DNA from: Candidatus Saccharimonadota bacterium
Lineage (GTDB): Bacteria > Patescibacteriota > Saccharimonadia > CAILAD01 > BJGX01
Reading direction: 5' to 3'
Assembly: GCA_046350735.1 (NCBI GenBank)
Contig: JAXLZU010000001.1
Coordinates: 307,950-371,949, forward strand
Length of the DNA stretch: 64,000 nt
Shown here in pieces: positions 32,794 to 35,879 of this stretch. Numbering within the stretch: position 1 is the first letter of the stretch; each line of letters opens with the position of its first letter. The notes beneath the pieces are model-generated. The model ran no database searches and was not told the origin of the DNA. It saw only the letters and a list, made by a program, of their open reading frames with translations. Position numbers and translations under genes: made by a program.

Positions 32794-32880
32794 GCCGCGG
32801 TGGTGGAATTGGTAGACACGCCAGCCTTAGGAGCTGGTGAGGTAACACTCGTGGAGGTTCAAGTCCTCTCCGCGGTACCA
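32794..32880 (+). tRNA. tRNA-Leu (anticodon UAG), class II tRNA with long variable arm, CCA encoded
   Basis: Acceptor GCCGCGG/CCGCGGT, D-arm with AATTGGTAGAC, anticodon stem CCAGC/GCTGG with loop CTTAGGA, T-loop GGTTCAAGTCC, terminal ACCA. Confidence 0.8.
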
Positions 32881-34014: not shown

Positions 34015-34043
34015 TTGACACACTACATTTGTTTTGCTACAAT
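34015..34043 (+). promoter_or_regulatory. near-consensus sigma70 promoter (TTGACA-17 nt-TACAAT) driving the large non-coding transcript
   Basis: -35 TTGACA at 34015-34020, 17-nt spacer, -10 TACAAT at 34038-34043. Confidence 0.75.
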
Positions 34044-34848
34044 CGTAATCACGTTTTTGAACCTTACATTTGCTGCTAAAGAGTAATCTTATGCAGCGAT
34101 AACCAGCTTTTTCTAGAGTATCTGCTTAGCGCGGGTGCACGGTTTGATTCGCCTCATAAAGAATCTGGTTATCGCTGCAGTTTGCAGCAACAGAAGTGTC
34201 ACCGCAGTGTTCTGCGCCTCGCGAGTAATCGCGCTCTGCCCACAGGGGATCGGTGGAGTTGTCGTGTGCCCCAGAACCACACGTTTGCAGCTCTGCCTTA
34301 ATGGTCGGGTATGGGTTAAACTACCAGGCTGCGGTGACACGCCAATCGCTAGCTCGTCATGGATGGCCACGACGTTGGCCGTGAGCTCTCCTGAGCTTGA
34401 AATACGAGCTGGCAGTGATGTGCGGGTTATCTCATGGGTGACCGAACCGAAGTGCGCGCAAGGGAAGACCGATAACCTTGTTCGCTCGGACGATCCTGTG
34501 AGTCGGCAGTAGGCTTCGGTCTCGCCCTCACATCACATGCTCGCGTTCCATCTTGCTTAGTGGGCAGGAATTACCCACCAGGGTGGAACGCACCAATCAG
34601 TGCCGGCTCGCGGAAGCGGGCGAGTACTAGCGGAATCGCCTGTAAAACGGGGGTCTTCGCGAGCCGGCACGTTTTTCCGCGCGCTAGTCTCGCCAGCTGA
34701 GCCATCTCCGGGTGGGGCCAATGCGAGCGGATGCGCCTGAGAGACCGAAGCTGTTGCCAACGGCTGAGGAGCAGTAATTGAGTGCCTACTCCAAAACCAC
34801 TCTTGCCCCGGTCTCTCGGGCGAAATCGAAACAGGTAACTGTTTTGAA

Positions 34849-34917
34849 GGGGACGAAGTTCTTGTGGAAGAACACCTGCCCATCGGCAGGAGGTGTGGTT
34901 CGACTCCACCGTCTCCA
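34849..34917 (+). ncRNA. tRNA-like element inside the large ncRNA (7-bp acceptor, 4-bp D-stem, hairpin with 6-nt loop in place of anticodon arm, tmRNA/tRNA-type T-loop GGTTCGACTCC)
   Basis: GGGGACG...CGTCTCC-A acceptor pairing; GTTC/GAAC D-stem; CCTGC/GCAGG stem with 6-nt loop; the 3' half GTGGTTCGACTCCACCGTCTCCA closely resembles the 3' end of Bacillus-type tmRNA; no encoded CCA. Confidence 0.5.
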
Positions 34918-35237
34918 CTGGTAGTACAATCTCGACGGCGGGCCCTTCCTGTCACCGGCGGAAAGATTGTGCTCCATCCCGGCTTCGGGTCGGGTTGCAC
35001 TAAGGTGTGATGTTCGCTACTAGCGCCTTACGTGTAACTCGGCTCGTCGCCGGACCACCCCCTTGCCTCAATACTAATGTATTGGGGCTTTTCTTATGCA
35101 AACAGGTTGAGTTAAACAAGGTATTATGATATATTTATAAGTATGAATACAGTTAAAACAGCTTGGTTTTATTTTACAAACTCTGTGTCTCGCCGAGGTG
35201 TTTTGCGTTAAAGTCTAAATAGTATGTAATTAATTGT

Positions 35238-35267
35238 AAGCCTCGGCTAAAGCCGAGGCTTTTTTTG
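35238..35267 (+). terminator. rho-independent terminator (AGCCTCGGC-TAAA-GCCGAGGCT + T8)
   Basis: Perfect 9-bp GC-rich hairpin followed by TTTTTTTT. Confidence 0.85.
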
Positions 35268-35335
35268 TTGGTATTACTGTGATTCGCTACAACTTAGAGA
35301 ATCACATCTGTACCTTCAACGCAAAGGAGAAGTAG

Positions 35336-35662
35336 GTGAACAATGTGGTAGTTATGCGGCAATGTACTAACCCATTGGCATACGAATTTGCTGCTCAACT
35401 ACAATTGAGTAACTACCAAAATACAATGTTTTTTACCCAACGGAATATTGAATATTGCCAAAGAGAGCTTGGCAGAGTTGGTATTATGGCCGAACAGATT
35501 GTCCGCCAAGTACTAGCTTTTTACGAAATTCGTACGGTTTTTGTGAGTGATACGCGAATAATGGTGGTGCTAAAAACTGGCAAACAGTGGCAGACACTGC
35601 CTGACCAAATAATGCGTATTGTCGAAAAGGCGCTAGACGAGTACGGAGAACTCCATGAGTGA
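35336..35662 (+). CDS. hypothetical protein
   Basis: 108 aa; GTG start preceded by AAAGGAGA RBS; no recognisable domain. Confidence 0.5.
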   Translation: MNNVVVMRQCTNPLAYEFAAQLQLSNYQNTMFFTQRNIEYCQRELGRVGIMAEQIVRQVLAFYEIRTVFVSDTRIMVVLKTGKQWQTLPDQIMRIVEKALDEYGELHE

Positions 35663-35879
35663 AATAAGCGACGAAAAATTCTTTAAAGCTCTCGACAAAG
35701 ATCTTTACGAAAAATTTCTTTCTCGTGGTGAAGAATACTTCGACGATGCCATGATGCGCTGGGCTTACTTACGAATTCAGGCAGCAAGAGAAGCTAAAAA
35801 ACGTGCCGAATTAGCCAGGCTAGAAAATACCAGAATACAATCTGAGAGTATAAAACTTCGCCGCCCGTACTTTTCTTAA
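35655..35879 (+). CDS. hypothetical small charged protein
   Basis: 74 aa; ATGA overlap with the upstream ORF; the stop codon lies inside the terminator hairpin at 35864-35892. Confidence 0.5.
   Translation: MSEISDEKFFKALDKDLYEKFLSRGEEYFDDAMMRWAYLRIQAAREAKKRAELARLENTRIQSESIKLRRPYFS

Follow-up and report, generated by a model that had tools for sequence, protein, structure and literature searches.

In a 64,000-nt stretch of a Candidatus Saccharimonadota genome (GenBank assembly GCA_046350735.1, contig JAXLZU010000001.1, positions 307,950 to 371,949 of the forward strand; the whole stretch is called the window below), a G + C-rich segment upstream of the trigger factor gene tig very probably encodes a member of a new family of modular, highly structured non-coding RNAs. 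The RNA unit most likely occupies positions 34050–35096 of the plus strand, which corresponds to about 1,050 nt, and would be transcribed independently of its neighbours. The plan of the family consists of a conserved 5′ module, a middle part that is exchangeable or dispensable, at least one tRNA-like cloverleaf, 3′ hairpins and an intrinsic terminator. As far as sampled, and with the same high confidence, the family is confined to a single sub-clade of Saccharibacteria and to a fixed chromosomal site upstream of tig. As overall explanation we favour a large non-coding RNA which carries an alanine-type, non-decoding tRNA mimic and is processed by tRNA enzymes; to this explanation we assign a probability of roughly 0.5.

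The G + C content of the unit is 58–60%, against about 40% for the background; it runs at 0.52–0.61 over positions 34050–35100 (approximate limits) and 0.33–0.45 in the flanks, in line with an earlier note on this DNA, which had described a G + C-rich, promoter-to-terminator non-coding transcript of about 1.2 kb. The promoter proposed there is the highest-scoring promoter-like site of the region and its box is kept in homologues (Table 1); transcription would start at about 34050. Two intrinsic terminators lie downstream, with stems at 35065–35088 and 35238–35261. The earlier note took the second one as the end of the transcript. This terminator is real and the non-coding unit on the plus strand stands, but because the second terminator belongs to a separate attenuator, the RNA is about 1,050 nt instead of about 1,200 nt long and probably ends at the first one.

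When folded, the plus strand yields a free energy of − 448.5 kcal/mol (z = − 7.5 against dinucleotide shuffles), compared to − 393 kcal/mol (z = − 4.6) for the minus strand. Changes that generate G.U pairs are seen only when the sequences are read as plus strand. The plus strand is thus the RNA strand. All long helices listed earlier appear in the minimum-free-energy fold, and most of them are longer than first described. The GNRA hairpin is also present in the fold, although its coordinates had been off by 1–3 nt. The core of the P3 stem (34196–34207/34329–34340), which is complementary at 12 of 12 positions and forms in the fold as well, was missing from that list. A conserved long-range helix closing the 5′ end onto the 3′ end was looked for in the RNA, but not found.

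Selection on the RNA structure is well supported. For a test of covariation, helices P2 and P3 were both trimmed to their basal 12 bp and compared across nine lineages. Taken together, 96.6% of the cells pair and 17 of the 24 pairs show changes on both sides (P2: 7 of 12 pairs, 97% of cells paired; P3 stem: 10 of 12 pairs, 95.8%). None of 500 shuffles reached these values, and sliding the partners against each other by 1–3 columns lowered pairing to 20–46%. RNAalifold, applied to a MAFFT alignment of the untrimmed 5′ modules, returned the same helices with 22 pairs, 14 of them compensatory. In the comparison of the window with its closest relative, L007, 28 of the 36 changed pairs of the minimum-free-energy fold still pair and 8 break; substitutions affect 7.4% of the paired and 14% of the unpaired positions. 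DNA identity between the two is 89–91% for the RNA, which is higher than for tig, clpP and murA (81–84%). Covariation of this kind was observed for part of the domains, namely the 5′ module and the tRNA-like module, and for several helices specific to the window. Among the latter, the P7–P9 region (34597–34823) aligns to positions 2377–2581 of L087 (nhmmer), with a C>U change that gives a G.U pair and a G-C>A-U change at the end of P9. The stem of P11 also co-varies between the window and L087, while its loop is conserved. The 3′ domain by itself folds with − 72.6 kcal/mol (z = − 6.0).

Homologous loci were collected from tig-linked regions of GTDB species representatives and by exact-protein look-ups. 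The homologous element is found directly upstream of tig, or of the small open reading frames (ORFs) preceding it, and the RNAs are about 0.35–1.4 kb in length. The approximate sizes are 800 nt in L007 (Tig identity 92%), 870 nt in L100 (77%), 1,390 nt in L087 (76%), 700 nt in L101 (64%), 860 nt in L008 (63%), 850 nt in L009 and L105 (61%), 930 nt in L010 (60%) and 820 nt in L011 and L098 (59%). More divergent or reduced forms occur in L106 and L109 (Tig identity 60%). The RNA is absent from the tig site in L088, L090 and L103, and from all examined loci whose Tig identity does not exceed 53%. All 10 homologues that bear the 5′ module have a − 35 box of the TTGAC type, a spacer of 17 nt, an extended − 10 box and an intrinsic terminator; the pattern TTGAC(A/G/T)-17-extended − 10 was located at the equivalent place in L007, L008, L009, L010, L011, L087, L100, L101 and L105. 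In L106 the promoter box is weaker (TTGCAT-type), and in L109 none was identified. All homologues end in an intrinsic terminator at a corresponding position.

A covariance model of the 5′ module (R1), which includes the 5′ leader and leaves out P3, scores 67–86 bits on 11 loci, namely the 10 training loci, where this is so by construction, and L098. It finds no second copy in the window and none in about 80 other Saccharibacteria tig loci, and it does not detect the module in L106 or L109, whose 5′ parts differ. The leader columns TTG-ACC are invariant in the alignment of 5′ modules. In the general layout of the RNA, P1 is represented by GCUG/CAGC and the following junction by AACA. A metagenome search with the motif TTTTGWACCT N{5,8} GCTG N{50,80} AGCAACANNNGTG matched nine stretches, one of which, L098, agrees with L011 over about 200 nt of the 5′ end read. 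The other eight (L091–L097 and L099, JGI contigs) were discarded as chance matches, being AT-rich, eukaryote-like and devoid of a tRNA-like module; L093 and L099, the two that were scored, reach 24–25 bits on R1. These eight chance matches to a 23-base gapped motif all sit in one AT-rich contig family. The GC islands upstream of tig in the distant Saccharibacteria L014 and L017 were likewise set aside, since they read as protein-coding, with a long ATG-initiated frame.

The RNA was searched against Rfam 15, using the gathering score for the whole window and E ≤ 10 for a 1.5-kb region. Among the relatives, nine loci were searched at the gathering score, five at E ≤ 1, and L087 and L010 at E ≤ 10. 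Only tRNA and terminator-like noise were returned for the window and the relatives, and no match to RNase P, tmRNA, GOLLD, ROOL, OLE, HEARO, raiA or group I/II introns was obtained up to E ≤ 10. ARAGORN calls no tmRNA in the window or the relatives, and no tag-peptide frame ending in A(A/V)-stop exists in 12 homologue sequences. In the literature we found no description of such a large non-coding RNA of Saccharibacteria or Patescibacteria. The earlier suggestion of a large structured RNA of unknown class is therefore borne out both by the strong covariation of its helices in the tig-linked relatives and by the lack of any Rfam family, other than tRNA, that would account for the region.

Its further statement that the segment holds no credible ORF agrees with our results as well. 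ORFs in the RNA region are short and mutually overlapping, the four longest have no Pfam match, and no reading frame is conserved across homologous loci, where just stretches of 22–60 aa match. By reading, these stretches appear to fall on or near tRNA-like modules. Public assemblies annotate a 147-aa minus-strand ORF at 34557–35000 as ‘hypothetical protein’ (cluster P0121, 8 members), which runs antisense across the RNA and the tRNA-like module. Beyond its own 98%-identical cluster, no homologue of this ORF was found among 5.8 billion proteins, and it almost certainly arose as an artefact of gene calling in non-coding DNA rich in G + C.

Within the family, no element is more constant than the tRNA-like module. 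The RNA had already been suspected to be composite and to contain such a module, which holds true; the module is not a side feature, however. In the window its acceptor strands lie at 34849–34855 and 34910–34916, with G3 at 34851 and U70 at 34914. The D loop contains GG, the T loop is GGUUCGACUCC and the anticodon arm is reduced to the hairpin CCUGCC-CAUC-GGCAGG. On the 3′ side follows ACUGG. The isolated segment folds as a cloverleaf; ARAGORN labels it ‘tRNA-???’ with a 2-nt ‘anticodon’ and Rfam scores it as tRNA-Sec with 20.7 bits. The equivalent modules of the relatives reach 44–57 bits against the Rfam tRNA model (threshold 29). The acceptor, D and T arms are those of a canonical tRNA, as are the nucleotides of the elbow (GG of the D loop and UUC of the T loop), and the elbow is intact in most lineages.

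In an alignment of ten lineages the acceptor stem is 100% paired. The wobble pair G3:U70 is present in 10 of 10 lineages, G1:C72 and C6:G67 are also invariant, and the pairs 2:71 (CG/GC), 4:69 (GC/UA), 5:68 (AU/GC/GU) and 7:66 (GC/AU) co-vary. Beyond this alignment, G3:U70 is kept in L109 and in the fourth of the four modules of L106. The anticodon loops, on the other hand, are CAUC, AGUU, UACG, GAAA, UUCG, UUA, GUUU or an extension of 20–25 nt. The loops thus measure 3–6 nt or are long extensions, and they differ in each lineage. No triplet is conserved in the anticodon arms across the lineages, and the alanine-type module has neither the canonical loop of 7 nt with U33 nor an anticodon that is conserved. 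Since the anticodon arm is a mere stem-loop without a conserved triplet, the module cannot decode.

RNAs of the family bear 1–4 tRNA-like modules. The extra modules of the relatives include Phe(GAA)-like ones whose T loop has C or A at position 54 (in L009, L010, L011 and L105), a Lys(CUU)-like one in L087 with two acceptor-stem mismatches, a His(GUG)-like one and several with loops of 5, 6 or 8 nt. Tandem tRNA-like genes were observed at L010 1991–2065 and 2197–2269, L011 3180–3253, L101 4357–4433 and L106 3059–3417. They feature C33, the A34 ‘anticodons’ ACC and ATC and anticodon loops 5, 6 or 8 nt in length, and together resemble a small array of tRNAs that are non-canonical or do not decode. 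A split tRNA-like element occurs at L009 6414–6605 and L105 3918–4111, consisting of GGGGAUG on the 5′ side and a T arm with CAUCCUC on the 3′ side. About 150 nt replace its D and anticodon arms, and it has G2.U71 instead of G3.U70. Its topology is like that of a miniature tmRNA, yet it has neither a tag frame nor an ARAGORN call.

The RNA is modular. Among strains that are 99.4–99.8% identical elsewhere, the 152 nt at 34378–34529 are swapped for an unalignable stretch of 275 nt, which is found in L001, L002, L004, L005 and L006 (e.g. L001 9281–9555). This stretch has the motif AAGACCAGAUA..GUUCAGC..GAGUCUGGCAG in common with L008 and L100, so that the two versions can be regarded as alternative states of one module. 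The closing stem of P5 (34415–34426/34525–34536) stays paired through the changes GC>CG, GC>UA, AU>UG and UG>UA. The swap suggests that divergent alleles of one RNA module have recombined within a population. L007 lacks the whole P4–P6 block (246 nt, 34347–34592), and the model positions equivalent to 34348–34592 find no match in it. A direct repeat, CCAAUC (CCAATC in the DNA), bounds this block at 34341–34346 and 34593–34598; a deletion between the repeats, or an insertion with target duplication, could account for the difference.

The explanation that we favour starts from the wobble pair of the module. G3:U70 is the major determinant recognised by alanyl-tRNA synthetase (AlaRS), and it works in anticodon-less minihelices and in tmRNA. 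Because AlaRS reads this pair without an anticodon, its invariance is most simply understood as an ongoing contact with AlaRS or another enzyme acting on the acceptor arm. The minihelix of acceptor and T arm, together with the intact elbow, would allow tRNA enzymes to act on the module. The primary transcript might then be cut there by RNase P and a 3′ endonuclease. These cuts would fix the ends of the large 5′ RNA, its 3′ end in particular, and set free an alanine-type acceptor of about 70 nt. After addition of CCA, AlaRS could charge this acceptor, as the enzyme ignores the anticodon. The product might serve as a carrier of alanine or as a ligand of AlaRS or of tRNA enzymes, and would be excluded from ribosomal decoding. 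It might be used to transfer alanyl groups outside the ribosome, to rescue ribosomes, or to sense or titrate AlaRS. As a whole, this scheme of processing and alanine acceptance is put forward tentatively. That the RNA gives rise to, or carries, a dedicated anticodon-less alanine acceptor, comparable to the tRNA-like domain of tmRNA without its message, is regarded as an unlikely reading. If true, alanyl groups would be supplied or sensed outside decoding, be it for tRNA-dependent aminoacylation of cell wall or lipids, for ribosome rescue or for control of AlaRS, and the surrounding ornate RNA of about 1 kb would constitute, in a minimal genome, a new class of RNA machine associated with tRNA.

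Several observations weigh against this explanation. No CCA is encoded in the tRNA-like modules, which are followed by N73-C-D, in contrast to the tRNA-Leu gene of the same genome; a module meant for charging would be expected to encode it. The structured hairpins that lie within 1–4 nt on both sides of the module fit an integral structural role as well as they fit excision. The discriminator is A in 7 of 10 lineages and U or C in the other three. Missing CCA, abutting hairpins and variable discriminator all argue against the processing scheme. The first tRNA-like module of L106 lacks G3:U70, and most synthetases could not use the odd anticodon loops of other modules in relatives, so that aminoacylation cannot explain all modules. 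The large domains may be accessory, as the 5′ module is not detected in L106 and L109. In addition, the sample comprises about 12 lineages, all from one clade, and transcription, processing and charging are deduced from sequence.

The same hairpins and the missing CCA also suit a different view, in which the RNA stays intact as a scaffold or assembly of the GOLLD/ROOL kind, possibly oligomeric, and keeps its modules as structural or recognition elements. The modules might then recruit AlaRS, RNase P, EF-Tu or the ribosome, or be stored in the assembly. GOLLD and ROOL sit in tRNA arrays, and some GOLLD RNAs hold embedded tRNAs, including tRNA-Phe, in a linker (PMC12286853; PMC12990946); Phe(GAA)-type modules occur here too. 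Further support comes from the size of 0.7–1.4 kb, the many long helices, the GNRA loops, the conserved loops (UGCCAA, CCUUCCUGUCAC) and the variable peripheral domains around a conserved core. Like GOLLD and, more loosely, ROOL, the RNA is a large (> 0.8 kb), ornate bacterial non-coding RNA which is physically tied to tRNAs, and as in GOLLD one part is conserved and another highly variable. In GOLLD, however, conservation lies in the 3′ region, whereas the present RNA conserves its 5′ module and varies in the middle, and its modules are non-decoding mimics, one of which, of alanine type, is retained across lineages. No match in sequence or structure to GOLLD or ROOL was detected even at E ≤ 10 in searches of about 1–1.5 kb, and the locus is a chromosomal housekeeping region of Saccharibacteria rather than a phage, prophage or mycobacterial tRNA array. 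Membership in GOLLD was thus rejected despite the association with tRNA, as was membership in ROOL, OLE, HEARO or raiA, for which no covariance-model match was obtained either. A purely architectural role would not lead one to expect that G3:U70 is strictly invariant. We regard the scaffold as the main alternative, but hold it with little confidence.

If the RNA were instead a small operon of non-canonical or decaying tRNA genes, its leader would be inert or act in processing and stability only, and its body would be debris of an array. The 2–4 tandem modules with aberrant anticodon loops in relatives, the mismatched Lys(CUU)-like module of L087, the widely varying content and the absence of the RNA from the site in L088, L090 and L103 could be read in this way. 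Debris would, however, hardly show the heavy compensatory covariation of the 5′ module, nor would it surpass the essential genes next to it in conservation when close relatives are compared. Outside the modules the RNA shows no similarity to tRNA, and the 10 lineages bearing the 5′ module have all kept promoter and terminator. A reduced genome of about 1 Mb is also unlikely to retain 1 kb of debris. This origin is therefore considered improbable.

A highly divergent member of a known family, be it a one- or two-piece tmRNA, an RNase P RNA or a group I intron of the Patescibacteria type, is more improbable still. A resemblance to the tRNA-like domain of tmRNA, such as that of Bacillus, exists in the acceptor stem GGGGACG/CGUCUCC, which contains G3:U70, and in the T loop GGUUCGACUCC. 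Yet here the acceptor stem closes a cloverleaf of 69 nt without a message domain, and the lack of a tag frame in the 12 homologues and of ARAGORN or Rfam calls led us to reject tmRNA. RNase P RNA was rejected as neither RNaseP_bact_a nor RNaseP_bact_b matches up to E ≤ 10 and as the middle domains are deleted or exchanged among close relatives. RNase P-like strings (‘GCUCCAUAGGG’ in L008, ‘GACCAGA’) were dropped, because the domain carrying them is dispensable (absent in L007) and has no Rfam support. Group I introns require more caution, since those inserted at tRNA position 35/36 in Patescibacteria are reported to escape both RF00028 and ARAGORN (PMC13011429), and the missing Intron_gpI match is to be read with this in mind. 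Nevertheless, the element has its own promoter and starts about 7 nt after it, and no host gene is split. A catalytic core would have to be sought between P3 and the tRNA-like module, and this part is not conserved but exchanged, deleted or missing among close relatives. All three points argue against an intron.

A protein-coding gene or pseudogene from a GC-rich donor, as the annotated 147-aa ORF and the elevated G + C content might suggest, is hardly credible given that no Pfam match, conserved frame or outside homologue exists and that the changes preserve base pairs rather than codons.

Three other systems offer comparisons with the RNA or its module. The tRNA-like domain of tmRNA has G1:C72, G3:U70, a canonical T arm and usually A73 in common with the module; both are acceptors of the alanine type, and neither relies on an anticodon. 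Unlike that domain, the module is a closed cloverleaf which has a D arm and, in place of the anticodon, a hairpin, and the RNA contains no enclosed message, pseudoknot ring, tag frame or encoded CCA. The mascRNA and menRNA of MALAT1 and NEAT1 are also tRNA-like cloverleaves whose anticodon arm is non-canonical, and they too are embedded towards the 3′ part of long structured non-coding RNAs. Cleavage by RNase P and RNase Z is reported to set the ends of these long RNAs and to free the small tRNA-like RNA. In contrast to the present RNA they are eukaryotic and unrelated in sequence (an Rfam match in L010 stays below threshold at 14–20 bits), and processing of the present RNA is a proposal. We know of no aminoacylation of mascRNA. 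YrlA, a bacterial non-coding RNA of about 100 nt encoded next to rsr/Ro, also mimics a tRNA with T and D arms and an acceptor-like stem, and its anticodon position leads into the Ro-binding helix. Unlike YrlA, the RNA yields just a sub-threshold match (17.5 bits, in L010 only) and has no rsr among the genes of its neighbourhood.

To our knowledge, bacterial structured RNAs longer than 500 nt are few, namely rRNAs, RNase P, tmRNA, group I/II introns, GOLLD, ROOL, OLE, HEARO and raiA. Each of the known large ones opened new biochemistry or structural biology. The RNA would add a class of large RNA from the Candidate Phyla Radiation, where genomes are minimal. A genome of this kind is unlikely to keep 1 kb of conserved non-coding sequence without a use next to its core genes for translation and transcription. 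It offers a natural parallel to the embedded tRNAs of GOLLD and to processing of the MALAT1/mascRNA type. Its invariant G3:U70 without an anticodon makes the function directly testable, by charging with AlaRS and excision by RNase P. In practical terms, public assemblies carry a spurious 147-aa protein across it.

Table 1 Features of the RNA and its surroundings (positions refer to the window)
Feature	Position	Strand	Remarks
tRNA-Leu (anticodon UAG)	32794–32880		Encoded CCA at 32878–32880; directly after murA
Hypothetical protein, 173 aa	33411–33932	minus	Adjoins the RNA
Sigma-70-type promoter	34015–34043	plus	TTGACA-17-TACAAT; 11/12; TG extension
5′ leader	34050–34071	plus	Conserved single-stranded UUUUG(A/U)ACCUU
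P1	34072–34076/34184–34188	plus	GCUGC/GCAGC; encloses long hairpin P2 (domain 34072–34188)
P2	34092–34112/34159–34179	plus	21 nt, 90% complementary
Junction AACAGAA, then P3 domain	34189–34340	plus	P3 stem 34196–34208/34328–34340
GNRA hairpin inside P3	34220–34233	plus	CGCGA-GUAA-UCGCG; further hairpins alongside
Block P4–P6	34347–34592	plus	P4 34348–34413, P5 34415–34536, P6 34543–34591
P6 helix	34543–34555/34579–34591	plus	13 nt, 85% complementary
P7	34597–34611/34656–34670	plus	34600–34612/34658–34670 complementary at 13/13
P8	about 34676–34730	plus	Between P7 and P9
P9	34731–34747/34809–34822	plus	34734–34747/34809–34822: 14 nt, 93% complementary
Small hairpin within P9	34749–34765	plus	Loop UUGCCAA (34754–34760) recurs in homologues
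Hairpin P10	34826–34847	plus	AAACAG-GUAA-CUGUUU; 1 nt (A34848) before the tRNA-like module
tRNA-like cloverleaf	34849–34917	plus	69 nt; acceptor GGGGACG/CGUCUCC; discriminator A (34917)
3′ domain	34920–35060	plus	P11 34923–34973 with conserved loop CCUUCCUGUCAC; P12 34979–35052, long hairpin
Intrinsic terminator, probable RNA 3′ end	35065–35096	plus	10-bp stem 35065–35088, then UUUUCUU
Putative leader-peptide attenuator	35107–35267	plus	Not part of the RNA; promoter-like site, ORF, anti-terminator, terminator
Attenuator promoter-like site	35107–35135	plus	TTGAGT-17-TATATT
Attenuator ORF, 22 codons	35143–35211	plus	MNTVKTAWFYFTNSVSRRGVLR, then stop; starts about 8 nt after the − 10 box, apparently leaderless
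Anti-terminator strand GCCGAGG	35191–35197	plus	Inside the ORF; complementary to CCUCGGC (35241–35247)
Attenuator terminator	35238–35267	plus	Stem 35238–35261; 5′ arm CCUCGGC
orf108 and orf74 (108 and 74 aa)	35336–35879		Downstream of the RNA

Judging from the encoded proteins, the host of the RNA is a Saccharibacteria metagenome-assembled genome (MAG). The flanking 173-aa protein is also found on near-identical contigs, including the MAG GCA_964570715.1, and the named trigger-factor homologues belong to Candidatus Saccharibacteria or Saccharimonadia. The genes on the 5′ side of the RNA are, in this order, gatB, dnaE, L19, nusA, clpC-like, radA, PBP, a class-I aminoacyl-tRNA synthetase, recG, purF, a methyltransferase, murA, tRNA-Leu, greA and the 173-aa hypothetical gene. 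On the 3′ side follow orf108, orf74, tig, clpP, an MFS transporter, rpoB, rpoC, fusA and tuf. The adjoining minus-strand gene and the two small ORFs are as the earlier note described them. The pairing of murA and tRNA-Leu is kept across many Saccharibacteria loci. No phage-like or mobile genes were observed among the neighbours of the RNA, and a blastn search in distant mode against 50,697 phage records yielded 0 matches. The window is core chromosome and the RNA locus is a housekeeping locus, not a mobile one.

The segment between the RNA and the small ORFs looks like a classical leader-peptide attenuator ahead of orf108 and orf74. According to folding, an alternative anti-terminator structure is feasible. 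The peptide, with a W-F-Y-F or W-Y-F-F-F run, and the pairing are kept in L007, L008, L087 and L100, and Rfam gives a weak match to Phe_leader. The run of aromatic codons suggests that the attenuator senses the charging of Trp-, Phe- or Tyr-tRNA. The sequence G(U/A)ACCUU occurs in the 5′ leader of the RNA (34059–34066) and again at 35311–35317, and also in L087, L100 and L008. The second copy lies just upstream of the Shine-Dalgarno sequence of orf108, with whose AAGG its CCUU can pair.

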